In this document: positions 36,951 to 53,468 of the stretch, in pieces
How positions within the stretch are numbered: position 1 is the stretch's first letter
Layout: each line of letters begins with the position of its first letter
Origin: Ostreococcus lucimarinus
Lineage: Eukaryota
Reading direction: 5' to 3' (one strand)
Length of the DNA stretch: 64,000 bases
Assembly (NCBI GenBank): GCA_000092065.1
Contig: CP000597.1
The notes under the pieces: model-generated
What the model was told of the DNA's origin: nothing
Databases searched by the model: none
Seen by the model: only the letters and a program-made list of their open reading frames with translations
Made by a program: the position numbers and the translations under genes

Positions 36951-39900
36951 ATGCGGCTCGACGACGGCGACGACGCGCGACGAAGGGACGCGCGCGCGGT
37001 TCGAGCGCGCGCGACGCGGACGCCGACGCGCGCGGCGACCACGCGCGGCGATGTCGTCGACGCCGCTGCCGCCGATGATGACATCGACGACGACGCCGTC
37101 GCGCGACCGGACGCGACGCGACGACGACGACGCGACGACGACGCGACGACGACGACGCGCGATGATGAGACGACGCGCGCGCGAGAGGGCGCGAGCGGAC
37201 GCCGGCGAGCGCGGGAACGAGGGAGAGCGACGAGGCGTCGTCGACGGCTCGGGACGGCGGCGGCGGCGGCGGCGACGGCGGCGTTGGCGGCGACGGTCGA
37301 GCGCGTCGGCGTGGACGCGTCGACGGCGCTCACGAAGGGGGTGGCGAGGAATGGTTTCGTGTCGTCGAGCGGGTATAAGTACTATAAGGTGAATGTGGCG
37401 TGCGTGGAGGCGGCGCAGCCGCTGACGTTGGAGCTGACGACGAGCAACGGGGACGCGAACTTGTACGTGTCTCGATCGGCGCAGCCGACGACTTCGTCGT
37501 ACGAACAGCGGAGCGTGAACGTTGGAAATGCGTTGGATTCGGTGACGATCACGAGTCCGGTGAATGGGTACTATTACGTGAGCGTGTACGGCGCGCTGTC
37601 CAGCACGTACAAGCTTCGAGCGCTCACGACGATGTTTACCGGGAAACATCCGTGCACGGGATTTCGAATCACCGATAGCGACGTCTCGAGCGTTGGCTCG
37701 GGATCTGGAAATCAGTTCATACTGCAAGAAGCGCTCACCGCGAGCGCGGCGGCGGGATTCACCGCGGATGTGTCCGTCGACGGCGACGTCATCCTCGGCG
37801 ACGCGTACACCGATTCGGTGACGGCGAAAGGAGAGCTCAAGCTCGGCGTGACGGACAGTACGTACTACGCCATCACGCGACAATCGCCGAGCGCACCGAG
37901 CAGCAACCCGGGCGGCGCTTTGTCGATCGTCGGCGCGAACGCGACCTATCAGGGGGGATCGGTAAAGATTCTCGGCGGAACGGGCGGTTCGGGGGCGGGC
38001 GGCGACGTCGTGATCGAGGCGGGGTCGGCGTCTGGCGGCAACGGTGGCGATTTGAAGTTACGTGGCGGCACGTCGAACTCAGGAACGGGCGGCGACGTCG
38101 TCATAGATGCCGGAGATAGCACGACACAAGCATCTTCGTACGAGGGCATCATTCACATAGGTCCAACTTCTGCGTCGTTTGTGCGCGTCGGCGAGAGTTC
38201 AAATAAGCAAGTTCAAACCGATATTTTCGGCGACTTGACGGTGCACGGAAATCTCTTGACAACGAATGATGTGGTGTACGCGAACAGCTACACGAGTTAC
38301 GTGCAGGTTTCAACCTCTCAAGACGGCATGTTTCATCAAGAAGTGCGCGCGCCAAAGATTACAGGTCTGGACGCGGAGGACATCACGGGCACTCCAACGA
38401 GCACGTTGACTTTAGACGCTGGCATGCGAGGGAGTCAGCAACACGTCGTGATCGCTCCGAGCGAGGCAACGGCGGTTTACATAGGTAGCAGCACATCCAC
38501 GATTCCGGTCTCGATAAGGCAAGGCGCGAACGCAGGAGACGTGCGAGTGCACGCTGATGGCAGCGGCGCGCTGTCCGTGACTTCGGCCGCAGGGCAGGAC
38601 CTGACGCTCGCGTCCGGCGACGACGTGGTGGTGACCACCGCGGCGAGTAAGACGCTCGCGCTGAAGCAGGACTCGACGAGCATTTTGAGCTGGGACGCGG
38701 CCGGCGCTGTGACTGTGAACTCCGTGAGCGGGCAGGACCTGACGCTGAGCACGGGCGGTAGCGCGGCCGTGACTGTGGACTCGACCGGGCAGGTGGGCAT
38801 CGGGACGACGACGCCGGGGAAGACGCTGGACGTCACCGGGACGGCGCGCGTGAGTGGCGCGACGACGCTGAGTAGCACGCTTGACGTGACTGGCGCTACG
38901 ACGCTCGCATCCGTGGGCGTGACCGGTGCGGCCACCGTCGGCGGGACTTTAGGTGTGACTGGCGCTACGACGCTCGCATCCGTGGGCGTGACCGGCGCGG
39001 CCACCGTCGGCGGGACTTTAGGTGTGACTGGCGCTACGACGCTCGCATCCGTGGGCGTGACCGGCGCGGCCACCGTCGGCACGACGCTCGGCGTGACTGG
39101 CGCTACGACGCTCACCGGCGACGTGACGATGAGCAACGACTTGACCGTGAGCGGTGCGCTTACTGTGACATCTGATGCCGCTGTGAGTTTGACCTCTGCA
39201 AGTGGTTCGGACGTGAGCTTGACGAGCGCCGGTACGGGTGGCATCGTGTTGACGTCGACGGACGACATCACGCTCGATGCTGCCGATGATGTGACGATCG
39301 ATGCCGCCGGTGCTTTGTCTTTGGAGCAGGGCGGGACGAGTATTTTGAGCTGGACCGACACCGGCGCTGTGACTTTGAACTCCTTAGGCGGGCAGACCCT
39401 GAGCGTGTCGAGCCTCAGCTCGGCCGGGAACGCGGGCGCCGTGAGCGTGTCCGGCGGCACGACGACTGGGACGTCCTCGAACACCGGCGGCGACTTGACG
39501 CTGCAATCTGGCGGCGCGCCCGCTGGCAGCGTGAACGGTGACGTTCTGGTGGACTCGGCCACTGGTCTAGGCACCGCCGGCTCGATCACGCTTCGCCAGG
39601 GGGTGGGCGGTGAGCGTGTTTCTGTGGACGCGAACGGCGCCGTGAGTCTGGACACGCACTCCGGGCAGGACCTGACGCTGAGCACGGGCGGTAGCGCGGC
39701 CGTGACTGTGGACTCGACCGGGCAGGTGGGCATCGGGACGACGACGCCGGGGAAGACGCTGGACGTCACCGGGACGGCGCGCGTGAGTGGCGCGACGACG
39801 CTGAGTAGCACGCTTGGCGTGACTGGCGCTACGACGCTCGCATCCGTGGGCGTGACCGGTGCGGCCACCGTCGGCGGGACTTTAGGTGTGACTGGCGCTA

Positions 39901-42900
39901 CGACGCTCGCATCCGTGGGCGTGACCGGCGCGGCCACCGTCGGCACGACGCTCGGCGTGACTGGCGCTACGACGCTCACCGGCGACGTGACGATGAGCAA
40001 CGACTTGACCGTGAGCGGTGCGCTTACTGTGACATCTGATGCCGCTGTGAGTTTGACCTCTGCAAGTGGTTCGGACGTGAGCTTGACGAGCGCCGGTACG
40101 GGTGGCATCGTGTTGACGTCGACGGACGACATCACGCTCGATGCTGCCGATGATGTGACGATCGATGCCGCCGGTGCTTTGTCTTTGGAGCAGGGCGGGA
40201 CGAGTATTTTGAGCTGGACCGACACCGGCGCTGTGACTTTGAACTCCTTAGGCGGGCAGACCCTGAGCGTGTCGAGCCTCAGCTCGGCCGGGAACGCGGG
40301 CGCCGTGAGCGTGTCCGGCGGCACGACGACTGGGACGTCCTCGAACACCGGCGGCGACTTGACGCTGCAATCTGGCGGCGCGCCCGCTGGCAGCGTGAAC
40401 GGTGACGTTCTGGTGGACTCGGCCACTGGTCTAGGCACCGCCGGCTCGATCACGCTTCGCCAGGGGGTGGGCGGTGAGCGTGTTTCTGTGGACGCGAACG
40501 GCGCCGTGAGTCTGGACACGCACTCCGGGCAGGACCTGACGCTGAGCACGGGCGGTAGCGCGGCCGTGACTGTGGACTCGACCGGGCAGGTGGGCATCGG
40601 GACGACGACGCCGGGGAAGACGCTGGACGTCACCGGGACGGCGCGCGTGAGTGGCGCGACGACGCTGAGTAGCACGCTTGGCGTGACTGGCGCTACGACG
40701 CTCGCATCCGTGGGCGTGACCGGTGCGGCCACCGTCGGCGGGACTTTAGGTGTGACTGGCGCTACGACGCTCGGCGGGACTTTAGGTGTGACTGGCGCTA
40801 CGACGCTCGCATCCGTGGGCGTGACCGGCGCGGCCACCGTCGGCACGACGCTTGGCGTGACTGGCGCTACGACGCTCGGCGGGACTTTAGGTGTGACTGG
40901 CGCTACGACGCTCGCATCCGTGGGCGTGACCGGCGCGGCCACCGTCGGCACGACGCTCGGCGTGACTGGCGCTACGACGCTCGCATCTGTGGGCGTGACC
41001 GGTGCGGCCACCGTCGGCGGGACTTTAGGTGTGACTGGCGCTACGACGCTCACCGGCGACGTGACGATGAGCAACGACTTGACCGTGAGCGGTGCGCTTA
41101 CTGTGACATCTGATGCCGCTGTGAGTTTGACCTCTGCAAGTGGTTCGGACGTGAGCTTGACGAGCGCCGGTACGGGTGGCATCGTGTTGACGTCGACGGA
41201 CGACATCACGCTCGATGCTGCCGATGATGTGACGATCGATGCCGCCGGTGCTTTGTCTTTGGAGCAGGGCGGGACGAGTATTTTGAGCTGGACCGACACC
41301 GGCGCTGTGACTTTGAACTCCTTAGGCGGGCAGACCCTGAGCGTGTCGAGCCTCAGCTCGGCCGGGAACGCGGGCGCCGTGAGCGTGTCCGGCGGCACGA
41401 CGACTGGGACGTCCTCGAACACCGGCGGCGACTTGACGCTGCAATCTGGCGGCGCGCCCGCTGGCAGCGTGAACGGTGACGTTCTGGTGGACTCGGCCAC
41501 TGGTCTAGGCACCGCCGGCTCGATCACGCTTCGCCAGGGGGTGGGCGGTGAGCGTGTTTCTGTGGACGCGAACGGCGCCGTGAGTCTGGACACGCACTCC
41601 GGGCAGGACCTGACGCTGAGCACGGGCGGTAGCGCGGCCGTGACTGTGGACTCGACCGGGCAGGTGGGCATCGGGACGACGACGCCGGGGAAGACGCTGG
41701 ACGTCACCGGGACGGCGCGCGTGAGTGGCGCGACGACGCTGAGTAGCACGCTTGGCGTGACTGGCGCTACGACGCTCGCATCCGTGGGCGTGACCGGTGC
41801 GGCCACCGTCGGCGGGACTTTAGGTGTGACTGGCGCTACGACGCTCGGCGGGACTTTAGGTGTGACTGGCGCTACGACGCTCGCATCCGTGGGCGTGACC
41901 GGTGCGGCCACCGTCGGCGGGACTTTAGGTGTGACTGGCGCTACGACGCTCGGCACGACGCTCGGCGTGACTGGCGCTACGACGCTCGCATCCGTGGGCG
42001 TGACCGGCGCGGCCACCGTCGGCACGACGCTCGGCGTGACTGGCGCTACGACGCTCACCGGCGACGTGACGATGAGCAACGACTTGACCGTGAGCGGTGC
42101 GCTTACTGTGACATCTGATGCCGCTGTGAGTTTGACCTCTGCAAGTGGTTCGGACGTGAGCTTGACGAGCGCCGGTACGGGTGGCATCGTGTTGACGTCG
42201 ACGGACGACATCACGCTCGATGCTGCCGATGATGTGACGATCGATGCCGCCGGTGCTTTGTCTTTGGAGCAGGGCGGGACGAGTATTTTGAGCTGGACCG
42301 ACACCGGCGCTGTGACTTTGAACTCCTTAGGCGGGCAGACCCTGAGCGTGTCGAGCCTCAGCTCGGCCGGGAACGCGGGCGCCGTGAGCGTGTCCGGCGG
42401 CACGACGACTGGGACGTCCTCGAACACCGGCGGCGACTTGACGCTGCAATCTGGCGGCGCGCCCGCTGGCAGCGTGAACGGTGACGTTCTGGTGGACTCG
42501 GCCACTGGTCTAGGCACCGCCGGCTCGATCACGCTTCGCCAGGGGGTGGGCGGTGAGCGTGTTTCTGTGGACGCGAACGGCGCCGTGAGTCTGGACACGC
42601 ACTCCGGGCAGGACCTGACGCTGAGCACGGGCGGTAGCGCGGCCGTGACTGTGGACTCGACCGGGCAGGTGGGCATCGGGACGACGACGCCGGGGAAGAC
42701 GCTGGACGTCACCGGGACGGCGCGCGTGAGTGGCGCGACGACGCTGAGTAGCACGCTTGGCGTGACTGGCGCTACGACGCTCGGCGGGACTTTAGGTGTG
42801 ACTGGCGCTACGACGCTCGCATCCGTGGGCGTGACCGGCGCGGCCACCGTCGGCACGACGCTCGGCGTGACTGGCGCTACGACGCTCGCATCCGTGGGCG

Positions 42901-45900
42901 TGACCGGCGCGGCCACCGTCGGCACGACGCTCGGCGTGACTGGCGCTACGACGCTCACCGGCGACGTGACGATGAGCAACGACTTGACCGTGAGCGGTGC
43001 GCTTACTGTGACATCTGATGCCGCTGTGAGTTTGACCTCTGCAAGTGGTTCGGACGTGAGCTTGACGAGCGCCGGTACGGGTGGCATCGTGTTGACGTCG
43101 ACGGACGACATCACGCTCGATGCTGCCGATGATGTGACGATCGATGCCGCCGGTGCTTTGTCTTTGGAGCAGGGCGGGACGAGTATTTTGAGCTGGACCG
43201 ACACCGGCGCTGTGACTTTGAACTCCTTAGGCGGGCAGACCCTGAGCGTGTCGAGCCTCAGCTCGGCCGGGAACGCGGGCGCCGTGAGCGTGTCCGGCGG
43301 CACGACGACTGGGACGTCCTCGAACACCGGCGGCGACTTGACGCTGCAATCTGGCGGCGCGCCCGCTGGCAGCGTGAACGGTGACGTTCTGGTGGACTCG
43401 GCCACTGGTCTAGGCACCGCCGGCTCGATCACGCTTCGCCAGGGGGTGGGCGGTGAGCGTGTTTCTGTGGACGCGAACGGCGCCGTGAGTCTGGACACGC
43501 ACTCCGGGCAGGACCTGACGCTGAGCACGGGCGGTAGCGCGGCCGTGACTGTGGACTCGACCGGGCAGGTGGGCATCGGGACGACGACGCCGGGGAAGAC
43601 GCTGGACGTCACCGGGACGGCGCGCGTGAGTGGCGCGACGACGCTGAGTAGCACGCTTGGCGTGACTGGCGCTACGACGCTCGCATCCGTGGGCGTGACC
43701 GGTGCGGCCACCGTCGGCGGGACTTTAGGTGTGACTGGCGCTACGACGCTCGCATCCGTGGGCGTGACCGGCGCGGCCACCGTCGGCACGACGCTCGGCG
43801 TGACTGGCGCTACGACGCTCGCATCCGTGGGCGTGACCGGCGCGGCCACCGTCGGCACGACGCTTGGCGTGACTGGCGCTACGACGCTCGGCGGGACTTT
43901 AGGTGTGACTGGCGCTACGACGCTCGCATCCGTGGGCGTGACCGGCGCGGCCACCGTCGGCACGACGCTCGGCGTGACTGGCGCTACGACGCTCGCATCT
44001 GTGGGCGTGACCGGTGCGGCCACCGTCGGCGGGACTTTAGGTGTGACTGGCGCTACGACGCTCACCGGCGACGTGACGATGAGCAACGACTTGACCGTGA
44101 GCGGTGCGCTTACTGTGACATCTGATGCCGCTGTGAGTTTGACCTCTGCAAGTGGTTCGGACGTGAGCTTGACGAGCGCCGGTACGGGTGGCATCGTGTT
44201 GACGTCGACGGACGACATCACGCTCGATGCTGCCGATGATGTGACGATCGATGCCGCCGGTGCTTTGTCTTTGGAGCAGGGCGGGACGAGTATTTTGAGC
44301 TGGACCGACACCGGCGCTGTGACTTTGAACTCCTTAGGCGGGCAGACCCTGAGCGTGTCGAGCCTCAGCTCGGCCGGGAACGCGGGCGCCGTGAGCGTGT
44401 CCGGCGGCACGACGACTGGGACGTCCTCGAACACCGGCGGCGACTTGACGCTGCAATCTGGCGGCGCGCCCGCTGGCAGCGTGAACGGTGACGTTCTGGT
44501 GGACTCGGCCACTGGTCTAGGCACCGCCGGCTCGATCACGCTTCGCCAGGGGGTGGGCGGTGAGCGTGTTTCTGTGGACGCGAACGGCGCCGTGAGTCTG
44601 GACACGCACTCCGGGCAGGACCTGACGCTGAGCACGGGCGGTAGCGCGGCCGTGACTGTGGACTCGACCGGGCAGGTGGGCATCGGGACGACGACGCCGG
44701 GGAAGACGCTGGACGTCACCGGGACGGCGCGCGTGAGTGGCGCGACGACGCTGAGTAGCACGCTTGACGTGACTGGCGTTACGACGCTCGCATCCGTGGG
44801 CGTGACCGGTGCGGCCACCGTCGGCACGACGCTCGGCGTGACTGGCGCTACGACGCTCGCATCCGTGGGCGTGACCGGTGCGGCCACCGTCGGCGGGACT
44901 TTAGGTGTGACTGGCGCTACGACGCTCGGCACGACGCTCGGCGTGACTGGCGCTACGACGCTCGCATCCGTGGGCGTGACCGGCGCGGCCACCGTCGGCA
45001 CGACGCTCGGCGTGACTGGCGCTACGACGCTCACCGGCGACGTGAGCGTCGGGACTTCCTCGGCTTTGAGTTTTGGTTCTGCAACCCGGCAGATGATCAA
45101 CTTATATGGAACAAACAACGCCATCGGCGTGCAATCGTCCACGATGTATTTTCGTAGTGCTTATAACTTTGCCTTTTTTGAAGGCGGCGTGTACACCAAC
45201 ACAGAGCTCGATCCGGGTTCGGGTGGCACTTTGCGCATGATGATTCAGAAAACCACGGGCAACGTCGGTATCGGGACGGCGAGTCCAGATTATGAACTCG
45301 ACGTGGTAGGCGATATCAACTTTTCTGGGAATCTCTATCAGGGTGGTTCGCTGTTTGCCTCCCCCTGGACGGAGAGCAGCGGTAACGTGTATCGCAGTAG
45401 CGGTAACGTCGGCATCGGGCTGACGAATCCGACCTACAATCTGCACGTTGCTGGAACGGGGCGCGTTAGTACGACGCTATCGGTGGGTCAAGATTTAACC
45501 ATCGACACGGCTGGCGACTTGAACTTTGCGGCGACGCATCGTCAGATGATCAACCTCCGCGTCGGCGCCGAGGGTTTCGGGATCGGGACGCAGATGGACA
45601 CGACGTACTTTCGCTCTCCGGGCCACTTTGCGTTCTACGAAGACGGAACGCACAGCACCACTGACTTGGACGCGAACGGTGGCACCGCGCGTCTGGTGAT
45701 CAGGAGCGGCGGGAAGGTGGGCATCGGGCGGACGAATCCGAGCTATGATCTCGACGTGGTAGGCGATATCAACTTTTCTGGGAATCTCTATCAGGGCGGT
45801 TCTCTGTTCCCGTCCCCCTCCCCCTGGACGGAGAGCGGCAGTAACGTGTATCGTAGTAGCGGTAACGTCGGCATCGGGCTGACGAATCCGAGCTACAAAC

Positions 45901-47045
45901 TGGACGTCACTGGAACAGGACACTTCACGGGCGCGACGACGATCGATGACCAACTCACCGTTGGCGGTAACGTATTGATCCAAAGTACAACCAATAAGAT
46001 TTCGTTTGGCAGCACAGCGCGTCAGTTTATTGAAACGAATAACGGTGGAATCGGAACGCAGTCAAAGACGCTGTATTTTCGTTCACAGGATTTTTTCGGC
46101 TTTTACAAAAATGGCGGTCACAACAGCGCCGATCTGAACCCAGGCGGAAGCGGGACTCTCCTTGTCGCCATTCGCGGTGACATCTCTGGTGCTCGAATGG
46201 CGATTGGATCTTCAGACACAGATAGTGGCTACGCTTTTAAGGTCACCGGGTCGGCGCAAGCGACCGCTGCGCTCGACGTAGGCACGACGCTTAATGTGGC
46301 GTCGTACGCGACAATTCGCGGCGACTTGCGCCTCAATACCGGTACTCAGCAAATAAATTTTGGTACCCAGCACCGTCAGGTTGCTGCGCTCGCGACTGGC
46401 GGCATCGGAACGCAGTCGAACACTGTATACTTTCGTTCACAGGACTTGTTTGGCTTTTATAAAGGTGGCGGCCATAGCTCTACCGCTCTTGATCCAGGCG
46501 GAAGCGGGACTCTCCTTGTCACCATTCGCGGTGACGTCTCTGGTCCTCGATTAGGAGTCGGAGTCACGAATCCCTCCTACGCTCTCGAAGTCAATGGAGC
46601 GGCGCACGTGTCTGGCGCACTGAGCAAGGGAAGTGGCTCTTTCAAGATCGATCATCCACTTCCTGAAATGAAAGACACGCATAATTTGTATCACTCCTTC
46701 ATCGAGGGACCACGGGCGGATCTCATCTACAGAGGCAAGGTTCGTTTGCAGAACGGTAGGGCGATGATAGACATCGATGCCGCATCAAACATGACGACAG
46801 GGACATTTGAAGCACTCAATCGCGACGTGCAGTCGTTCACGTCAAATGAAAGCGACTGGGACCCCGTCCGAGGTTCTGTCGTGGGCAACGTCCTCACCAT
46901 TGAGTGTCAAAACCCCACTTCGACGGCACTCATCAGCTGGCTTGTCATCGGTGAGCGTCACGATCAGCACATGTACGACACAGATTGGACCGATGAAAAC
47001 GGTCGTGTCGTTCCGGAACAATTGAAAAAGAGTGCGACGACGTGA
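36951..47045 (+). CDS. Giant (3,364 aa) repeat protein: PPC-like domain, nested tandem repeats, tail-fibre-like C-terminal region
   Basis: ATG at 36951. Arg/Asp leader followed by an Ala-rich hydrophobic anchor (about 37240-37300). PPC-like segment YKYYKVNV...LELTTSNGDANLYVSRS...GYYYVSVYG at about 37371-37630. Repeat array at 38730-45040. Four divergent repeats containing GNVGIG...P.Y.LDV.GDINFSGNLYQGG at 45040-46560. C-terminal FKIDHPLPEMKDTHNLYHSFIEGPRADLIYRGK. Confidence 0.85.
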   Translation: MRLDDGDDARRRDARAVRARATRTPTRAATTRGDVVDAAAADDDIDDDAVARPDATRRRRRDDDATTTTRDDETTRAREGASGRRRARERGRATRRRRRLGTAAAAAATAALAATVERVGVDASTALTKGVARNGFVSSSGYKYYKVNVACVEAAQPLTLELTTSNGDANLYVSRSAQPTTSSYEQRSVNVGNALDSVTITSPVNGYYYVSVYGALSSTYKLRALTTMFTGKHPCTGFRITDSDVSSVGSGSGNQFILQEALTASAAAGFTADVSVDGDVILGDAYTDSVTAKGELKLGVTDSTYYAITRQSPSAPSSNPGGALSIVGANATYQGGSVKILGGTGGSGAGGDVVIEAGSASGGNGGDLKLRGGTSNSGTGGDVVIDAGDSTTQASSYEGIIHIGPTSASFVRVGESSNKQVQTDIFGDLTVHGNLLTTNDVVYANSYTSYVQVSTSQDGMFHQEVRAPKITGLDAEDITGTPTSTLTLDAGMRGSQQHVVIAPSEATAVYIGSSTSTIPVSIRQGANAGDVRVHADGSGALSVTSAAGQDLTLASGDDVVVTTAASKTLALKQDSTSILSWDAAGAVTVNSVSGQDLTLSTGGSAAVTVDSTGQVGIGTTTPGKTLDVTGTARVSGATTLSSTLDVTGATTLASVGVTGAATVGGTLGVTGATTLASVGVTGAATVGGTLGVTGATTLASVGVTGAATVGTTLGVTGATTLTGDVTMSNDLTVSGALTVTSDAAVSLTSASGSDVSLTSAGTGGIVLTSTDDITLDAADDVTIDAAGALSLEQGGTSILSWTDTGAVTLNSLGGQTLSVSSLSSAGNAGAVSVSGGTTTGTSSNTGGDLTLQSGGAPAGSVNGDVLVDSATGLGTAGSITLRQGVGGERVSVDANGAVSLDTHSGQDLTLSTGGSAAVTVDSTGQVGIGTTTPGKTLDVTGTARVSGATTLSSTLGVTGATTLASVGVTGAATVGGTLGVTGATTLASVGVTGAATVGTTLGVTGATTLTGDVTMSNDLTVSGALTVTSDAAVSLTSASGSDVSLTSAGTGGIVLTSTDDITLDAADDVTIDAAGALSLEQGGTSILSWTDTGAVTLNSLGGQTLSVSSLSSAGNAGAVSVSGGTTTGTSSNTGGDLTLQSGGAPAGSVNGDVLVDSATGLGTAGSITLRQGVGGERVSVDANGAVSLDTHSGQDLTLSTGGSAAVTVDSTGQVGIGTTTPGKTLDVTGTARVSGATTLSSTLGVTGATTLASVGVTGAATVGGTLGVTGATTLGGTLGVTGATTLASVGVTGAATVGTTLGVTGATTLGGTLGVTGATTLASVGVTGAATVGTTLGVTGATTLASVGVTGAATVGGTLGVTGATTLTGDVTMSNDLTVSGALTVTSDAAVSLTSASGSDVSLTSAGTGGIVLTSTDDITLDAADDVTIDAAGALSLEQGGTSILSWTDTGAVTLNSLGGQTLSVSSLSSAGNAGAVSVSGGTTTGTSSNTGGDLTLQSGGAPAGSVNGDVLVDSATGLGTAGSITLRQGVGGERVSVDANGAVSLDTHSGQDLTLSTGGSAAVTVDSTGQVGIGTTTPGKTLDVTGTARVSGATTLSSTLGVTGATTLASVGVTGAATVGGTLGVTGATTLGGTLGVTGATTLASVGVTGAATVGGTLGVTGATTLGTTLGVTGATTLASVGVTGAATVGTTLGVTGATTLTGDVTMSNDLTVSGALTVTSDAAVSLTSASGSDVSLTSAGTGGIVLTSTDDITLDAADDVTIDAAGALSLEQGGTSILSWTDTGAVTLNSLGGQTLSVSSLSSAGNAGAVSVSGGTTTGTSSNTGGDLTLQSGGAPAGSVNGDVLVDSATGLGTAGSITLRQGVGGERVSVDANGAVSLDTHSGQDLTLSTGGSAAVTVDSTGQVGIGTTTPGKTLDVTGTARVSGATTLSSTLGVTGATTLGGTLGVTGATTLASVGVTGAATVGTTLGVTGATTLASVGVTGAATVGTTLGVTGATTLTGDVTMSNDLTVSGALTVTSDAAVSLTSASGSDVSLTSAGTGGIVLTSTDDITLDAADDVTIDAAGALSLEQGGTSILSWTDTGAVTLNSLGGQTLSVSSLSSAGNAGAVSVSGGTTTGTSSNTGGDLTLQSGGAPAGSVNGDVLVDSATGLGTAGSITLRQGVGGERVSVDANGAVSLDTHSGQDLTLSTGGSAAVTVDSTGQVGIGTTTPGKTLDVTGTARVSGATTLSSTLGVTGATTLASVGVTGAATVGGTLGVTGATTLASVGVTGAATVGTTLGVTGATTLASVGVTGAATVGTTLGVTGATTLGGTLGVTGATTLASVGVTGAATVGTTLGVTGATTLASVGVTGAATVGGTLGVTGATTLTGDVTMSNDLTVSGALTVTSDAAVSLTSASGSDVSLTSAGTGGIVLTSTDDITLDAADDVTIDAAGALSLEQGGTSILSWTDTGAVTLNSLGGQTLSVSSLSSAGNAGAVSVSGGTTTGTSSNTGGDLTLQSGGAPAGSVNGDVLVDSATGLGTAGSITLRQGVGGERVSVDANGAVSLDTHSGQDLTLSTGGSAAVTVDSTGQVGIGTTTPGKTLDVTGTARVSGATTLSSTLDVTGVTTLASVGVTGAATVGTTLGVTGATTLASVGVTGAATVGGTLGVTGATTLGTTLGVTGATTLASVGVTGAATVGTTLGVTGATTLTGDVSVGTSSALSFGSATRQMINLYGTNNAIGVQSSTMYFRSAYNFAFFEGGVYTNTELDPGSGGTLRMMIQKTTGNVGIGTASPDYELDVVGDINFSGNLYQGGSLFASPWTESSGNVYRSSGNVGIGLTNPTYNLHVAGTGRVSTTLSVGQDLTIDTAGDLNFAATHRQMINLRVGAEGFGIGTQMDTTYFRSPGHFAFYEDGTHSTTDLDANGGTARLVIRSGGKVGIGRTNPSYDLDVVGDINFSGNLYQGGSLFPSPSPWTESGSNVYRSSGNVGIGLTNPSYKLDVTGTGHFTGATTIDDQLTVGGNVLIQSTTNKISFGSTARQFIETNNGGIGTQSKTLYFRSQDFFGFYKNGGHNSADLNPGGSGTLLVAIRGDISGARMAIGSSDTDSGYAFKVTGSAQATAALDVGTTLNVASYATIRGDLRLNTGTQQINFGTQHRQVAALATGGIGTQSNTVYFRSQDLFGFYKGGGHSSTALDPGGSGTLLVTIRGDVSGPRLGVGVTNPSYALEVNGAAHVSGALSKGSGSFKIDHPLPEMKDTHNLYHSFIEGPRADLIYRGKVRLQNGRAMIDIDAASNMTTGTFEALNRDVQSFTSNESDWDPVRGSVVGNVLTIECQNPTSTALISWLVIGERHDQHMYDTDWTDENGRVVPEQLKKSATT
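38730..45040 (+). repeat. Near-identical nested tandem array inside the giant CDS (6 full units plus 1 partial)
   Basis: The QDLTLSTGGSAAVTVDSTGQVGIGTTTPGKTLDVTG landmark recurs at 38730, 39663, 40527, 41601, 42606, 43506 and 44613. Unit lengths are 933, 864, 1074, 1005, 900 and 1107 bp. All length differences are sums of 69-bp (ASVGVTGAATVGGTLGVTGATTL) and 36-bp (GGTLGVTGATTL) sub-repeats. Units are almost identical at nucleotide level by eye. Confidence 0.9.
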
Positions 47046-47163: not shown

Positions 47164-50100
47164 CTATAGTCTAAAAGATAGCTTTGCGAACTCTCCGTCG
47201 GACACCGCGTCGCTCGTCTGCCCCCCCGTCGCGCCGTCATCGCTCGTTTCGCTTCCGAGCAACGAAGACGCCTTTCGCCGGCGCTCAGGCGAATCGTCCG
47301 CGTCCCGAAAATCGTAGAGATAATCGCTATGCCTTGCATAATGCACCCGCGTCGCTTCTTCTCCTGAGGCATTAAATCTATACGACTCGGGAGAAAATGA
47401 TGACTGAGCGAATCTGTCCTCATCTGACGCGCTCTCTTCGGCGTCGTACGATTCACCCATGGAATACGCCAGTTCGCTCGGTTCACGTTCACTCAGTCCA
47501 TCATTCGGTGTATTCAGCCCTGGTTGGCGTCCACTAGATGGGTCTTTCATCTCAAACGCGTAATGATCGTCATCCGAGTCAGCATCCGTGGAAGATGCGT
47601 AAGCACGCCGCGACTCAAACCTGTTCTCACCAAAAAATGCGGCGCCGCGTAGAGGTTCCGGTGGTTCCAGTTCTAGTTCGGGTTCCGGTTCCGGTCGCAC
47701 TTCCCGTTCTGCTGTCACATCCGTCTCTGGTGCGAGATCTAAGATGGACTGGTTCCGTCCGGGCACGACGTTACCCTGCTCTCCATTCGTCTCGAATGCG
47801 GCGAGCGTCGCGACGTGATCGCGAGCGACACTCCCGCCTCGGTGACCCTTTACGACGGCACGTTCTTCCTGAGCGCTGTGGGTGAATCTCTCAATCACGC
47901 TACGCGCTTTGGTTGATGCGTCAAATAACGCGCCACCAGGTTCGCGCGACCGCACGACTTTCTTTTTAATTCTGATTGCGAGTCGTCGAAGCTGAATCGT
48001 GTGCTTGATAATTTCCACCACCTCCTCGGTGTCGTACAGTCCCTCGTCGTCCGCTGATACTGAGAATCTTTCGAGAATGATCGCCACAAATAAATTTCCG
48101 AGCAAAAATATAGAGATGATGACAAATGATATAAAGTATGGGACCGCAGCAGCGTTATACGAGCAGTCGATGCTGGATTCCAACATGAACGGTGCTTCTG
48201 TGCGTAAGCACGCCTCTGTTTGGTACACCTCGCCGAACGTGCCAACCCAGCCACCCGTGTACACCCCGATGAGAGATGAGCAAGCTGTGGTGAATCGTTG
48301 AAAGTTCGAGTACTTCGATAGCACGCCGCCTTCGAAAGGGCCGGTTTCATCGCCGAAAAGTGAAACACCCATGATGGCGTACGAAAAGATCGCGAGGGAC
48401 GATAGCGCGGCGACGTTTCCGACACCCGGAAGACTCATTATGAACGTGTTGAAGAGCGACCGCAGCCCAGAATGTGCCTTTACCAGTTTCAGTAATCTCA
48501 ACAATCTCACCAATTGTAGGTAATTCATGACACCGCCTGCGTTTAGACTTTGTCCGATCGCCTGTACGATGGAAACTACGACGACGAAGGCGTCCAGCCA
48601 ATTCCAATAATTCCTAAAGTAACGCGTCCGACCTTGCGCCATGAGCAAAAGCATCATTTCCAAAGAGTACACCGCAGTGAACGCGATAGACATGCAGAAG
48701 TGAGCATATTCTGCTGAACTGCTCATATTCGCCGTTTGTGTCAAGAGCTCGATTAAATTTGCGCACACTACCACGAGGATGAAGTACGCAAACTTTTTCG
48801 GCTTTGAGATATGATGCGCAAGTAGACGAGCTCGCGACCAAAGGCTTTTGCCTGGCGGCGGTACGATTCTGCGCCATGCCTCTGAATCTTGCGTGCTTGC
48901 ACGTAGTATAGCCTGCTGCCAGCGCCGCTGCGCTGGGGTGACAAACGTAAGCTTGTCTTGCGAAGCCATCTTGTTAAAGTTGTCCACGAGCGCCGTGACT
49001 AATAAATTCAACCAAAAGAAATTCCCGATGGCGACCGTCAATACAAAATAAAGAGCGGCGGCTTGGTTGTTATCTGTTTTCAAGCCGGTCCCGACGCCTG
49101 TGGTATCCATGGCGACCCACATGATTTCTTGCCAGTCATCGCCGGCGTGCAGTAGAAACGTCGATAAAAGTGCAGCGCCAAAGTTATCAAAGTTGAACTT
49201 TGCATTTCGCCACTTTCCTCCCGCTGCCTCGCACGTTGCTTGTGTAGTGTAGCTACTCGCATCATTCACCACTCGACACGACCAAAACTTACCCATAAAG
49301 AGCTCCATACCAAGAAGTGCGAAAATTGACATGGAAACTAAACCGATGAAGCACACGTAACTTACGGCTGGGATCGCGGAAAGTACAGTGTTAACGACAA
49401 GGCGGAGACCAGGGAAACGACGAATGGATCGAAGCGGGCGCATGATTCGCAAAAGTCGAAGTGCTCGCACGCTTCCGCTGCCATCGTCTGCCGCGGTGAG
49501 CGAAATGATTGATGTAAAGACGACGACGCCATCGAGAATGTTGAAGGAATTCTTCAGATACGCAGTCGGTCGCTCGTACAACCCGTAGGCGAATAACTTT
49601 AATACCATCTCTGCGCCAAATAAAGTCGTAAAAGTAATATCAACCGCGGTGTACACTTTTGCAGTATGAGATCCCGCCACTGGCCAAGTCTTTGTTTCTG
49701 TCGCGAGTAACACGCTACCAGCGATGATCATGCATAGAATGGCGTTCTCAAAGAGGTTGTGTGAAACAATTTTGTGCACCAAGTATTTGTATCTCTCGAC
49801 GGGAATCGTATCGTCGTACAGCGGTATAAAGTCGCCATCTTTTGTGACGATCACGCCCGGTATCTCTGACGACTGTTTCTTCACGCGTGAGGAGATGGAT
49901 CTCGTGATTGTCGCCGCCCAAGGACCGTGCGCGTCAAAGACGACATGCTCGTCTTCCTTACTCTTATCCTCGATGCTTAAACGATTGTTTTGCGCCGCAA
50001 ATCTTTTCGTCATACTGTGCCTAATAGAACTTTTGATAGAGCTAGTCACCCCGAACGCTTTGTCTTGATAGTCTTGATACTCCACAAACTTTGGCGTCAG

Positions 50101-52740
50101 GCGAAGTTGAGCCTCCTTAAGAGCGTGCTCGCTTATGGTCAGTACTTGCGCCGGTGTCTTCAACTTGAATCCGATCGAATCTAGAAATATCCTGCACGCA
50201 GCAACATCTTCGACTGTTTGCTTTCTCAAGCGGTCCTTCTTGACCTGCGCGAGCTTGCCACCGTGATCCGGAGGCTTTAATGCTGCGAGTACGGATGAAA
50301 TCGCCGTAGGCGTACTGCCATCGGCCGTCTTTAAACTCTTTTTCGCTTGCGATTGTATTGCTTGTTCGGCACATTCTTGTTTCCTGGCCGCATCCAAAAG
50401 ATTAAACTTGAAGCTCGTATCACCTCTGTCTTTTATCGAGTCGCCGCGCTTGCTGCGCGCATGTTTTCGCAACGTACTCCTGAATGCGTTCGCCGCGAAT
50501 GTCATGTTTTGCAGTACCCGTTTCGCTTTCCGATTCGGATCTAGCACGATATCACCCGCACGTTCGATGGCAGACCTCAGTCTGCCATCTTCAAGCTCGT
50601 CTTGCGCGCGTTGCTCTTCCTCGATGTCGACGAGCGAACACGAGTCGATTAAAATCCCGAGCACGAGCGACAAGATGACGGTGGATAAAAAAATCCACGC
50701 GATGGTGTACAGAACGACGACGTCGTTACCGGACGCTACCATAGTATTCCACGCGACAACAAACGAGTCCTCTCCCGTGGCGACAACAAACAGCGTCAAC
50801 GCGCTGCGCAAAAAGTTCCTAAACGTCAAGCGCTCGTCGTCGAGCGCTCCTAACCCGGTGAAGAGTTGAAATCCGTAAATGGCAAATATGACTTGAAATA
50901 ATAGCCAAACGATCAAAAACGGCCACATGTCTTGGAAACCGAGATACGCGCTTGAAATGATCTTCCTAAATTCTCTGTTGTTTCTGATGACGCGAAACGT
51001 TCGCAGCGCCCTTCCTATTCGCAAGAGACGAATGAATGACGCGCTCACGCCTTGACTCGTCACCGCCGTACTGATGACACCGGTAAACACGATCAACCCA
51101 TCGACAACGTTTTGCTTTGAGCTCCAGTATCCTCTAAAGCCGTATCCGATGTGTTTAATCGCCATTTCTACAGCAAAACATCCGAGGAAAACATATTCTA
51201 AAATTTCAGAAGCCTTGACGAATCCCGACGACGCCGCGTGATGCTGCGACATCATCAAAATTGTATTAAATATAATAACCACCGTGATGCTGGCATCAAA
51301 ACGTCGGTCTTCAGCGATTTTCCAGCACATTTGACGCGTTGCATCAGACACAAAGAGACGAAAAAAACGCTCACCATTCTTGTGAAAGTTGTTTCCGCGT
51401 CCATCGCTTTCGCCGCGACTGAGCGCCGTCTCGTCGTCCAAGCTTTCTAGTACTTTCTCTGTCTTCGCCTGGCTCGAGTCTTCGGGCGCTTCGTCTTCGT
51501 CGCGAATACCCATTTGCGTCAACGTCGCGCAAATGACGGATGTAAAGAGTTCCATCATAAAAAACCCACCCATCAGAACGACGACGATGAACCAAAGAAA
51601 CGCCGCGGGATAGCCAACCGCGTACGCCGTGGGATTGAGCAACTCATTCCAACCGTCGATGGTCATTCCATTTAACGCGACAATTGAACTTCTCCCAGCG
51701 TTCGCAAAGCTCAGAAATCCGTCATACGGCTCGATGCCCGAATCACAGCACCACTCCGTCGCGCTTCTGTTTGTGTTCCATTCCTTGTAGTTGCACGTGC
51801 TGTCGTACTCATTTGGGTACGTTCCTTCGGCGCCCAACGCGAGAGCGCCCATCCACGCGCCGACCAAGTTCGCACACGTCTCACTCCCCGTCCCCACGGG
51901 AAACACGTAGCTCGCGTTCGTCGCTTGATCCGGCGGCGTCCCGTACCACCGTCCCGTCATCCGACCGCCGAACATCGTCACGCCGCTCACCGCGAAGAAT
52001 ATTAAAAACCACAGCAAAAACAACAGCACGTCCCCCAACAACGGCAGCGCTCGAGCGATCGTTTTCATCGCCAACCTCGCGCTGCGGTACTTCGCGAACA
52101 ACTTGAACGCGTACAACGACCGCAACAGTCGCACCGTCACCACCTGCGAGCCTCCGATCGGCATCAACATCAACGACAGCACGACGAGCGTGAAATCGAA
52201 CCGATGCCAATTCGTCGTCAAGTACGCCCCCTCGCCCAGCGCGAATCCCAGCGCCACGCTCTTCACCAGCGCCTCCGCCGCGAACACCCCCGCGACGACG
52301 TAATTCGCCGCCGTCGCCGCCGTCGCCTCCGCCGCGCCATCCCTCGCCGGTTTCACCACCGCGACGATCGCGCTCGAGCCCACGACGCACATCGCGACGA
52401 CGGCGTGAAACGCGCGCGCCTCGATCGCGCGCGCGCAGAACCGTCGCGTCGCGCCGTCGCGCCGGAACATCAACAGCGACGCGTCGTTCGCGCGCCATCG
52501 CTCGAGCGTCCTCGCGACGCGTCGCGTCACCGCGCCTCCCGCGTCGTCGTCGCCGTCGCGCGCGTCGTCGTCGTCGTCGTCGCGCGCGCGCGCGCCGTCG
52601 CGCGCGTCGCGCGCGTCGCCGTCGTCGTCGTCGTCGTCGCTCGTCGAGCTCGCGCGCGCGCTGTCGTCCACCTTCCGCGCGCGCGCCTCGCGCGCGTCGC
52701 GCGCGCGCGACACGAACGCGTCCGTGAACTGAAAGTTCAT
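47164..52740 (-). CDS. Four-domain voltage-gated cation channel (Cav/Nav superfamily)
   Basis: ATG at 52740. Four 6-TM repeats with Arg/Lys-every-third S4 helices: VRLLRSLYAFKLFAKYR, IRLLRIGRALRTFRVIR, VRALRLLRIMRPLRSIRR, LQLVRLLRLLKLVKAHSGLR. Pore loops: MTIDGWNEL, ATGEDSF, HAGDDWQEI, YTGGWVG. Confidence 0.9.
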   Translation of the reverse strand: MNFQFTDAFVSRARDAREARARKVDDSARASSTSDDDDDDGDARDARDGARARDDDDDDARDGDDDAGGAVTRRVARTLERWRANDASLLMFRRDGATRRFCARAIEARAFHAVVAMCVVGSSAIVAVVKPARDGAAEATAATAANYVVAGVFAAEALVKSVALGFALGEGAYLTTNWHRFDFTLVVLSLMLMPIGGSQVVTVRLLRSLYAFKLFAKYRSARLAMKTIARALPLLGDVLLFLLWFLIFFAVSGVTMFGGRMTGRWYGTPPDQATNASYVFPVGTGSETCANLVGAWMGALALGAEGTYPNEYDSTCNYKEWNTNRSATEWCCDSGIEPYDGFLSFANAGRSSIVALNGMTIDGWNELLNPTAYAVGYPAAFLWFIVVVLMGGFFMMELFTSVICATLTQMGIRDEDEAPEDSSQAKTEKVLESLDDETALSRGESDGRGNNFHKNGERFFRLFVSDATRQMCWKIAEDRRFDASITVVIIFNTILMMSQHHAASSGFVKASEILEYVFLGCFAVEMAIKHIGYGFRGYWSSKQNVVDGLIVFTGVISTAVTSQGVSASFIRLLRIGRALRTFRVIRNNREFRKIISSAYLGFQDMWPFLIVWLLFQVIFAIYGFQLFTGLGALDDERLTFRNFLRSALTLFVVATGEDSFVVAWNTMVASGNDVVVLYTIAWIFLSTVILSLVLGILIDSCSLVDIEEEQRAQDELEDGRLRSAIERAGDIVLDPNRKAKRVLQNMTFAANAFRSTLRKHARSKRGDSIKDRGDTSFKFNLLDAARKQECAEQAIQSQAKKSLKTADGSTPTAISSVLAALKPPDHGGKLAQVKKDRLRKQTVEDVAACRIFLDSIGFKLKTPAQVLTISEHALKEAQLRLTPKFVEYQDYQDKAFGVTSSIKSSIRHSMTKRFAAQNNRLSIEDKSKEDEHVVFDAHGPWAATITRSISSRVKKQSSEIPGVIVTKDGDFIPLYDDTIPVERYKYLVHKIVSHNLFENAILCMIIAGSVLLATETKTWPVAGSHTAKVYTAVDITFTTLFGAEMVLKLFAYGLYERPTAYLKNSFNILDGVVVFTSIISLTAADDGSGSVRALRLLRIMRPLRSIRRFPGLRLVVNTVLSAIPAVSYVCFIGLVSMSIFALLGMELFMGKFWSCRVVNDASSYTTQATCEAAGGKWRNAKFNFDNFGAALLSTFLLHAGDDWQEIMWVAMDTTGVGTGLKTDNNQAAALYFVLTVAIGNFFWLNLLVTALVDNFNKMASQDKLTFVTPAQRRWQQAILRASTQDSEAWRRIVPPPGKSLWSRARLLAHHISKPKKFAYFILVVVCANLIELLTQTANMSSSAEYAHFCMSIAFTAVYSLEMMLLLMAQGRTRYFRNYWNWLDAFVVVVSIVQAIGQSLNAGGVMNYLQLVRLLRLLKLVKAHSGLRSLFNTFIMSLPGVGNVAALSSLAIFSYAIMGVSLFGDETGPFEGGVLSKYSNFQRFTTACSSLIGVYTGGWVGTFGEVYQTEACLRTEAPFMLESSIDCSYNAAAVPYFISFVIISIFLLGNLFVAIILERFSVSADDEGLYDTEEVVEIIKHTIQLRRLAIRIKKKVVRSREPGGALFDASTKARSVIERFTHSAQEERAVVKGHRGGSVARDHVATLAAFETNGEQGNVVPGRNQSILDLAPETDVTAEREVRPEPEPELELEPPEPLRGAAFFGENRFESRRAYASSTDADSDDDHYAFEMKDPSSGRQPGLNTPNDGLSEREPSELAYSMGESYDAEESASDEDRFAQSSFSPESYRFNASGEEATRVHYARHSDYLYDFRDADDSPERRRKASSLLGSETSDDGATGGQTSDAVSDGEFAKLSFRL

Positions 52741-52976
52741 CGAATCCCGGCGCGTCGCGCGCCGCGCGTCGCGCGCGCGCGCCGCTGTGCCGACGAATCG
52801 AATCGAAACCGCATTCGCATTCGCGAATCGCGCGCGTCAGAGCGCCGCGCGACACGCCGCTCGACGCGACGCGCCGCGTCGCGACGCGCGACGCCGCGCT
52901 CGACGCGCGCGCGCGCGCGCGACGCGCTGAAAACGACGCGACGCGCTGAAAACGGCGCGTTCGATCGCGCGCGGGC

Positions 52977-53468
52977 ATGTCGCGGAAACACCTCACGGAC
53001 GAGGAGCTCGCGAGCGCGTGGCCGTACCTCACGCGCGCGCAGGTGCAGGAGTTCAAGGAGGCGTTCGATATATTCGACGTCGACGGCGGCGGGACGATCA
53101 CGGCGGAGGAGCTCGGGGAGGTGATGAAGTCGCTCGGGCAGAAACCGACGAGGGCGCAGCTGGAGGCGATGGTGCGGGAGATCGACGCGGACGGGGACGG
53201 GGCGATCGATTTTCCAGAGTTTTTGACGATGATGCTGCGGAAGATGAACGAGGGTGATCCGGAGAGGGAGCTCAGGGACGTGTTCACGGTGTTCGATAAG
53301 GATCAGAGCGGGACGATTAGCGCGGATGAGCTGAAGAGCGTGATGAAGGTCATCGGGGAGAAACTGACGGAGCAAGAGATCGAGGACGCGATTCGGTTGG
53401 CGGATACCACGGGAGACGGAGAGGTTGATTACGATGAGTTCATCGCGTTCGTGCTGTCGTCGAATTAA
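52977..53468 (+). CDS. Calmodulin-like protein with four EF-hands and a 20-aa N-terminal extension
   Basis: ATG at 52977. EF loops [48 protein letters not shown]. Colinear with calmodulin (EFKEAF.IFD...TI...ELG.VM.SLGQ.PT.A.L..M..E.DADG.G.IDFPEFL.MM). Confidence 0.9.

Follow-up and report, generated by a model that had tools for sequence, protein, structure and literature searches.

The channel gene and its selectivity filter

The 64,000-nucleotide stretch of Ostreococcus lucimarinus DNA analysed here (contig CP000597.1; hereafter the window) contains a gene for a four-repeat voltage-gated cation channel, flanked by a calmodulin-like gene on one side and by a giant open reading frame (ORF) on the other; the subject of this work is the selectivity filter of that channel, which reads Asp/Glu/Asp/Gly (D/E/D/G) over repeats I to IV. 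The channel ORF (47164..52740, minus strand) is uninterrupted and intronless, with 5577 nt encoding 1858 amino acids (aa). Pfam recognises four Ion_trans repeats in the protein (E 5e-171), and by sequence its closest solved structures are those of the human T-type channels (Cav3.2, Cav3.3 and Cav3.1; E 8e-130 to 2e-120), followed by Cav1, Nav1 and Cav2 (the Cav3, Cav1 and Nav1 matches span E 1e-130 to 1e-92); the matches to NALCN are much weaker (E about 1e-32). The protein clearly belongs to the superfamily of four-repeat voltage-gated cation channels (Cav/Nav/NALCN). From the AlphaFold2 (AF2) model helices and the sequence, the repeats were placed as follows: repeat I, with a long Cys-containing S5-P turret, at aa ~109-410 (51511..52416, minus strand); repeat II at aa ~466-701 (50638..51345, minus strand); repeat III at aa ~995-1260 (48961..49758, minus strand); and repeat IV at aa ~1315-1566 (48043..48798, minus strand).

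The protein itself is not new. The homologue search returned an identical 1858-aa protein (P0001), and the ORF, the Pfam and structure matches and the agreement of its S4 segments and TFVT motif with a published catalogue identify it as the complete coding sequence of 'Ostrel3' (XP_001422214.1), listed in the survey of 277 four-repeat channels by Pozdnyakov et al. 2018 (PMC5824947), in which Figure 3 maps each filter. The S4 strings given for Ostrel3 of O. lucimarinus in Table S2 (row 206) of PMC5824947 are identical to those of the channel in repeats II and III and differ in repeats I and IV only by apparent text-extraction slips, while the next-closest orthologue (P0002) differs from them. 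The text discussion of PMC5824947, Figure 3 apart, treats E/E/E/E rings, Lys-, Arg- and His-rings and D/D/D/D, and does not include a D/E/D/G ring; the unslashed term 'DEDG' has no match in the supplement of that survey or in the main text of PMC4436565.

The pore modules were aligned one by one to all PDB chains with HMMER. We use HFS for the high-field-strength filter site, with HFS+1 for the following position, where an Asp is called the 'beacon'. The repeat I loop T-I-D-G-W (51649..51663, minus strand) pairs without gaps (mtiDgw with itmEgw of Cav1.1, whose loop is TMEGW), placing D362 (codon GAC, 51655-51657) at HFS, and is invariant in the clade described below. The repeat II loop T-G-E-D-S (50764..50778, minus strand) is also ungapped against the TGEDW loop of Cav1 and Cav2 (atgEds with ltgEdw of Cav1.2, Cav1.3, Cav2.2 and Cav2.3), and therefore E657 (codon GAG, 50770-50772) corresponds to the filter Glu, D658 is the HFS+1 beacon and Ser659 occupies the site of the conserved Trp at HFS+2. 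The same ungapped pairing in the repeat III loop A-G-D-D-W (49132..49146, minus strand; hagDdw with askDgw of Cav3.1, Cav3.2 and Cav3.3, loop SKDGW) makes D1201 (codon GAT, 49138-49140) the equivalent of the repeat III Asp in Cav3, followed by D1202 as a second HFS+1 Asp. There is no Lys at the HFS position of any repeat, and the HFS+3 residues are N365, F660, Q1204 and V1499, so that the outer acidic ring of Nav channels is absent.

The repeat IV loop T-G-G-W (48247..48258, minus strand) is one residue short of the usual T-G-[E/D]-x-W, as seen in the HMMER gap, the profile survey and the secondary structure of the model, and it is shorter by one residue than the loop of every solved Cav or Nav channel. 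In the alignment to Cav3 the gap lies opposite the filter Asp (vytg.gw with vstgDnw); in that to Nav1.5 it lies one position earlier, opposite a Ser (vyt.ggw with ittsAgw), and G1496 (codon GGT, 48253-48255, in YTGGW) pairs with the Ala of DEKA. A pooled pore-loop profile puts the gap at the filter column of repeat IV (TG-GW), and in the alignments to the query model or to the pore profile the acidic repeat IV residue of nearly all other channels appears as an insert. The same profile writes repeat II of Nav channels as CG-EW. In structures, the Glu of this CGEW loop is the filter residue; since the profile gaps Nav repeat II at this known filter Glu, the placement of the gap is arbitrary. The missing residue of Nav repeat II has been assigned to the beacon position, after the filter Glu (PMC10120453), and by analogy the repeat IV filter residue of the algal channel would be G1497. 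G1496 and G1497 are both Gly, and therefore D/E/D/G survives in either register. The repeat IV Gly is the footprint of a one-residue deletion rather than of a substitution.

It is hardly credible that the odd ring is an alignment artefact concealing a true EEEE, EEDD, DEKA or DEEA filter. The ambiguous gap in repeat IV and the misplacement of the Nav repeat II filter Glu by the profile would fit such an error, but repeats I to III align ungapped to solved structures, the repeat IV segment V-Y-T-G-G-W-V-G-T-F contains no D, E, K or A, and every member of the clade gives the same reading; this explanation was rejected. The preliminary description of the locus had reported a four-repeat voltage-gated channel of an alga with a D/E/D/G ring, taking in each repeat the residue two positions before the pore-loop Trp. 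The channel agrees with the four Ion_trans repeats and the match to O. lucimarinus Ostrel3, its four filter codons are in frame and translate as claimed, and the ring is borne out by the ungapped repeats I to III and by Gly in both registers of repeat IV; no register of the structure alignment yields EEEE, DEKA, EEKE or DEEA. The Trp-based rule itself lacks rigour in the shorter loop of repeat IV, where the reading is still Gly.

A model of a linker-deleted construct (aa 106-712 and 986-1572) was calculated with AF2 from alignment rows taken from full-length homologues (mean predicted local distance difference test score, pLDDT, 69; predicted template-modelling score 0.66; pLDDT 74-81 in the pore-loop blocks). 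The I-II linker, which in Cav3 channels holds a helix-loop-helix 'gating brake', is poorly modelled (pLDDT below 50 at construct residues 307-359). The best Foldseek matches of the whole pseudo-tetramer are Cav3.3 (7wli; template-modelling scores 0.77/0.81), Nav1.7 (about 0.80) and also Cav3.2, with a sequence identity to Cav3 of ~25-27%. The secondary structure assigned by DSSP shows a normal P1-turn-P2 arrangement in all four repeats, the turn between the pore helices consisting of T-G-E-D (repeat II) or G-D-D (repeat III) but reduced to G1496-G1497 in repeat IV, between the end of helix P1 at T1495 and the start of helix P2 at W1498. This two-Gly turn agrees with a deletion leaving bare backbone, and in the model the repeat IV side of the pore would offer backbone only, with no side chain.

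Conservation of the ring in a picoalgal clade

An exhaustive HMMER search with repeats III-IV returned 14,595 relatives, of which the best 150 representatives were examined; word-indexed homologue searches gave 16-17 proteins. When 166 full-length proteins were aligned to a single-sequence model of the query with hmmalign, repeats III and IV were well aligned and repeats I and II were lost for many of them. The rings were consequently surveyed by searching each repeat with a pooled pore-loop/S6 profile, which detected four pore loops in 154 proteins. EEEE is the most frequent ring (85 of the 154) and is also described as dominant in the text of PMC5824947. The others are D/E/D/gap (16/154, every one from the clade described below), EEDD (11/154), EDEE (9/154) and a remainder of 33 (D/-/D/D in four, D/-/E/A in two, the rest singletons).

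The clade comprises two subgroups. Subgroup a includes the marine-metagenome orthologues P0002-P0010, which share 51-62% overall identity with the channel and have all four loops unchanged; P0235, a partial protein named by NCBI as Ostreococcus tauri, contains TIDGW and SGEDS. Subgroup b (P0011-P0013, P0088-P0091, P0115 and P0175) is 30-41% identical to the channel, with the loops TIDGW, TGENT, TGDNW and [TS]G-NW, and its S4 strings match the rows Micros4 and Microp5 (Micromonas) and Ostret4 (O. tauri) in the tables of PMC5824947. Both subgroups have the D/E/D ring, the repeat IV deletion and Ser or Thr in place of the repeat II Trp. The subgroup b paralogues (Ostret4, Micros4, Microp5) differ from the channel in having no HFS+1 Asp, and their repeat IV may contribute an Asn. 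In a neighbour-joining tree of repeats III-IV (75 taxa, 588 columns) the clade was recovered in 93 of 100 bootstraps, with subgroups a (100) and b (96) as sisters. The clade can so far be assigned to Ostreococcus and Micromonas, green picoalgae.

Trp at HFS+2 in every repeat is a feature of the superfamily from which the channel departs in repeat II (Ser659). At this site, 137 of the 138 non-clade representatives have the Trp, the lone exception being an unaligned row, and all clade members have Ser or Thr; the missing Trp is thus a clade-specific departure which leaves membership of the superfamily unaffected. Across relatives of 30-62% identity, no part of the protein is better conserved than the pore loops. 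Because the four loops are invariant in orthologues 51-62% identical to the channel, the ring is due neither to chance nor to sequencing error; it is a conserved, clade-defining trait and neither noise nor the mark of a pseudogene.

Other variation was noted around the same loops. In subgroup a, Ala (A1199, 49144..49146, minus strand) replaces the usual Thr or Ser two positions before the repeat III filter residue (H-A-G-D-D-W); in subgroup b the repeat III Thr is retained, and the Trp site of repeat II is also Thr. In NavAb-type structures the pore-loop Trp forms a hydrogen bond with the Thr of the neighbouring repeat, and by analogy A1199 and S659 (50764..50766, minus strand) could be coupled changes. 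Outside the clade, unusual rings were seen in P0094 and P0095, one being Q/S/D/D and the other Q/N/D/gap, the latter with its repeat IV loop shortened to 'TL-TW'; P0094 also has Ser for Trp in repeat I. The shortening of the repeat IV loop may have had more than one origin.

Voltage sensing, probable inactivation and predicted selectivity

The voltage sensors are intact, the S4 segments of repeats I to IV carrying three, six, six and four charges, with Arg or Lys at every third position. The S4 of repeat I (VTVRLLRSLYAFKLFAKYR; 52084..52140, minus strand; the segment matched in row 206 of Table S2 of PMC5824947) has R204, R207 and K213 in register and a Tyr at the third position. According to the sequence and Table S2, repeats II (50971..51033, minus strand) and III (49417..49470, minus strand) each have six Arg at every third position, and repeat IV (48478..48516, minus strand) has R, R, K and K with the same spacing. 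The III-IV linker is ~54 aa long in the model (S6 of repeat III ends at ~1260 and S1 of repeat IV starts at ~1315), within the short length of about 53-57 aa reported for the superfamily (PMC6259924). It reads DKL-TFVT-PAQ, and T-F-V-T (48937..48948, minus strand) is a candidate fast-inactivation particle: Table S3 of PMC5824947 lists for Ostrel3 the inactivation motif 'TFVT', docking residues T/N/N, and pre-IQ and IQ motifs as 'Not identified'. Within subgroup a the motif is mostly kept as [LM]TFV-T; the variants TFA, TLA and TFT also occur. The catalogued TFVT is the counterpart of IFMT, the inactivation-gate motif of Nav channels. From these features we infer that the channel would be activated by depolarisation and inactivate fast.

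The S4 segments also bear on the proposal that the pore is degenerate, its filter collapsed or distorted, and that the protein serves as a voltage sensor, a scaffold or a small leak. In its favour, two near-universal pore features are gone (the Trp of repeat II, a residue of repeat IV), and the repeat I S4 has Tyr for its third charge. However, the S4 segments of repeats II to IV are fully charged, the AF2 model keeps the normal P1-turn-P2 arrangement in the four repeats, and conservation of the protein is highest in the pore loops, which would be unexpected if conduction were dispensable. We regard a degenerate pore as quite improbable.

The channel was compared with the named families. It resembles Cav3 (EEDD) in its best sequence matches and top fold match (7wli), in the exact alignment of the repeat III filter Asp with D1201, and in the Asp at HFS+1 of repeat II, where D658 of TGEDS falls on the D of TGEDW. 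It differs from Cav3 in having Asp for Glu in repeat I, the repeat IV Asp deleted, Ser for the repeat II Trp, an extra HFS+1 Asp in repeat III, and the catalogued TFVT counterpart of the inactivation gate; Cav3 channels are not known to have an IFM-type gate. Membership of Cav3, which has been described only from choanoflagellates to humans and with an HFS ring that is 'always' EEDD (PMC10120453), was rejected on the D/E/D/Gly ring with its repeat IV deletion. The Nav2 channels (BSC1/DSC1/NvNav2; DEEA, DEES/DEEG/DEET) have, like the algal channel, a ring of Asp, Glu, an acidic residue and a small neutral one with no Lys, and TFVT is, as catalogued, a Nav-type feature. DEEG, a published variant of Nav2, whose channels are reported to be Ca2+-permeable or non-selective (PMC6259924), differs from the ring of the channel in a single Glu to Asp change in repeat III. 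In Nav2, however, it is repeat II that has the shortened loop (CGEW), with a Glu at HFS+4 as 'sodium beacon', whereas the algal repeat II is of full length (TGEDS-F-V) with Asp at HFS+1, Phe at HFS+3 and Val at HFS+4, the short loop is in repeat IV, and an outer acidic ring is lacking. The filter ring agrees with that of Nav2 at positions I, II and IV, and membership was rejected on the repeat III Asp, the full-length repeat II and the missing HFS+4 Glu.

The remaining animal families and fungal Cch1 were also rejected: Cav1/Cav2, as the ring is not EEEE or EDEE and Pfam finds no GPHH or Ca_chan_IQ domain (the text of PMC5824947 places the alpha-interaction domain only in the high-voltage-activated clade); Nav1, as the ring has no Lys (DEKA or DKEA being needed); and NALCN and Cch1, given the absence of a ring Lys (EEKE/EKEE), the charge-rich S4 segments and the weak NALCN match. 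Chlamydomonas CAV2 and other EEEE channels of algae and protists belong to the same superfamily, also found in green algae, but have an EEEE ring, no shortening of the repeat IV loop, and the pore-loop Trp in every repeat. The engineered bacterial channel CavAb (filter TLDDWSD) is said, from the work of Tang et al. in 2014, to create stacked Ca2+ sites with its Asp-Asp-Trp filter; G-D-D-W of repeat III and G-E-D-S of repeat II resemble it, although in CavAb, a homotetramer, each Asp is present four times in a symmetric arrangement and the acids of the algal channel are spread asymmetrically over three of four repeats. The channel belongs to no named animal subfamily and probably resembles Cav3 and Nav2 in its working. 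The D/E/D/G ring reads as a conservative variant of the EEDD and DEEA/DEEG rings.

The preliminary description had set the ring against EEEE, DEKA and EEKE as the canonical filters and had concluded that the ion selectivity of the channel could not be assumed. None of those three fits, as it stated, but its list omitted EEDD (Cav3) and the DEEA/DEES/DEEG/DEET rings (Nav2), and its conclusion was overstated, since the lack of Lys, the three carboxylates and the two HFS+1 Asp constrain the selectivity (PMC10120453). According to Fux et al. (PMC6259924), Na+ selectivity is tied to a Lys in repeat II or III, and Spafford 2023 (PMC10120453) regards the HFS+1 Asp beacon as the main determinant of Ca2+ selectivity. 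With no Lys and an HFS+1 Asp in repeats II and III, a pore permeable to Ca2+ and not selective for Na+ is therefore predicted by these published rules. We favour the reading, at a probability of about 60% for the whole of it, that this is a functional depolarisation-gated four-repeat cation channel which conducts Ca2+ and is characteristic of a green picoalgal clade.

In this pore, repeats I to III each place one carboxylate at the constriction (D362, E657 and D1201), and repeats II and III have a further Asp (D658 and D1202) at the next position outwards; the repeat IV wall is formed by the Gly-Gly backbone, the normally acidic residue being gone, and the Trp that usually braces the repeat II loop is replaced by Ser. 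Three carboxylates and two outer Asp with no Lys would bind divalent cations and allow Ca2+ conduction. The Ca2+ affinity would probably be below that of EEEE channels, so that some Na+ might pass in seawater, as in DEEA/DEEG Nav2 channels and some EEDD Cav3 channels. For the alga, the channel would provide a fast, voltage-triggered and quickly inactivating Ca2+ entry, and the product of the neighbouring calmodulin-like gene may tune the channel.

Several points weigh against this reading. The beacon scheme comes mostly from work on animal and bacterial channels, and the query has a short repeat IV loop and no repeat II Trp. The removal of one carboxylate from EEEE reportedly lowered Ca2+ affinity in the L-type mutagenesis of Yang in 1993 and Ellinor in 1995, and, given a lowered Ca2+ affinity, monovalent flux could dominate in seawater (~470 mM Na+). 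The AF2 model is of moderate confidence, and the pore geometry was read from the DSSP string alone. Finally, no canonical IQ or pre-IQ motif is present, and the link to the calmodulin-like protein is one of gene arrangement only.

A rival reading is a conductance that is mainly monovalent, selective for Na+ or non-selective, providing the depolarising current of a Na+-based action potential in seawater, with the missing fourth carboxylate and the short repeat IV loop weakening divalent binding until Na+ dominates. The ring has only three carboxylates; a filter loop shortened by one residue ('Class IV') is typical of repeat II of Nav1 and Nav2 (PMC10120453) and is gapped by the same profile in both cases; TFVT is catalogued as an inactivation-gate counterpart; and Nav2 channels with DEEA do not select between Na+ and Ca2+ (PMC6259924). 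Against these stand the absence of Lys from every repeat, the HFS+1 Asp in repeats II and III, a feature linked to Ca2+ selectivity or strong Ca2+ block (PMC10120453), the position of the shortening in repeat IV and not in repeat II, and the absence of the Nav-type outer acidic ring. We consider a mainly monovalent channel plausible but less likely, and a Ca2+-conducting one remains the reading that we prefer.

The clade amounts to a natural experiment in which one of four filter side chains and one of four bracing Trp are gone and strong constraint is kept, and its selectivity would test rules on ring charge, the HFS+1 beacon and loop length that are almost entirely of animal and bacterial origin. 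Among marine eukaryotic phototrophs, Ostreococcus and Micromonas rank with the smallest and the most abundant, and the result bears on their electrical and Ca2+ signalling. Four-repeat channels of algae and protists are already known for many non-canonical rings, which makes the present one a useful lead and not a surprise.

The calmodulin-like neighbour and the rest of the locus

The calmodulin-like gene (52977..53468, plus strand) lies head-to-head with the channel gene across a 236-bp spacer (52741..52976). It encodes a 163-aa protein with four EF-hands (Pfam EF-hand_7, 1.6e-35), ~60% identical to calmodulin by eye (phmmer E about 1e-53). The same divergent pair is present at three orthologous loci (P0002, P0005 and P0009; L001-L004 and L007), even where the other neighbours differ, with the EF-hand gene at 5322-5810 of L001, 4748-5236 of L003 and 4321-4812 of L007. 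Across the paired loci the EF-hand protein is 87-90% conserved and the channel 51-62%. At the one subgroup b locus examined, no calmodulin-like gene was found beside the channel.

Right after S6 of repeat IV, the channel has a basic amphipathic IQ-like stretch (EIIKHTIQLRRLAIRIKKK; aa 1576-1594; 47959..48015, minus strand), conserved in the alignment in the form IKHTIQLR[RK]LA. Pfam finds no IQ or GPHH domain in the channel, in agreement with the 'Not identified' entries of Table S3 of PMC5824947, and this helix is a candidate binding site for the calmodulin-like protein. From the arrangement of the two genes, the latter may be a dedicated, co-regulated partner or auxiliary subunit of the channel; the conserved head-to-head pair points to a way in which Ca2+ might regulate a channel that lacks a canonical IQ motif.

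These features can be assembled into a bolder proposal, that of a new pore architecture in the superfamily: an asymmetric, three-sided acidic filter with one glycine-backbone wall, and a dedicated calmodulin-like subunit expressed from a shared bidirectional promoter and bound through the non-canonical IQ-like helix next to the repeat IV S6. It starts from three changes regarded as coupled (a filter residue gone from repeat IV, the bracing Trp gone from repeat II, and Asp doubled in both repeats II and III), and we judge it unlikely. If it were true, selectivity and conductance might escape the rules established for animal channels, for instance as a wide Ca2+/Na+ pore of high throughput, fit for seawater, or one passing Mg2+ or larger cations.

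The first 100 aa of the channel (52441..52740, minus strand) form a low-complexity, Asp/Arg/Ala-rich N-terminus (DDDDDDGDARDARDGARARDDDDDD...), and this GC-rich segment overlaps several long spurious ORFs in other frames; the support for the start codon is agreement in length with the orthologues only (96-99% coverage). The GC content of the channel gene is low with respect to its flanks: 0.54 overall and ~0.50 across aa 400-1600, with a third-position GC content (GC3) of 0.63 compared to 0.85 in the calmodulin-like gene and 0.75 in the giant ORF; the only GC-rich part is formed by the Asp/Arg-rich N-terminal 200 codons (0.72). Low expression, codon bias and regional composition are possible reasons for the low value.

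The giant ORF (36951..47045, plus strand; 3364 aa) is convergent to the channel gene. Its product has an N-terminal match to the PPC (pre-peptidase C-terminal) domain (E 2.8e-9), many near-identical long repeats rich in 'GVTGATTLASVGVTGAATVGGTL' units and a distinct C-terminal region of ~1000 aa with no Pfam match. At the orthologous channel loci its place is taken by PseudoU_synth_1 and DAO genes.

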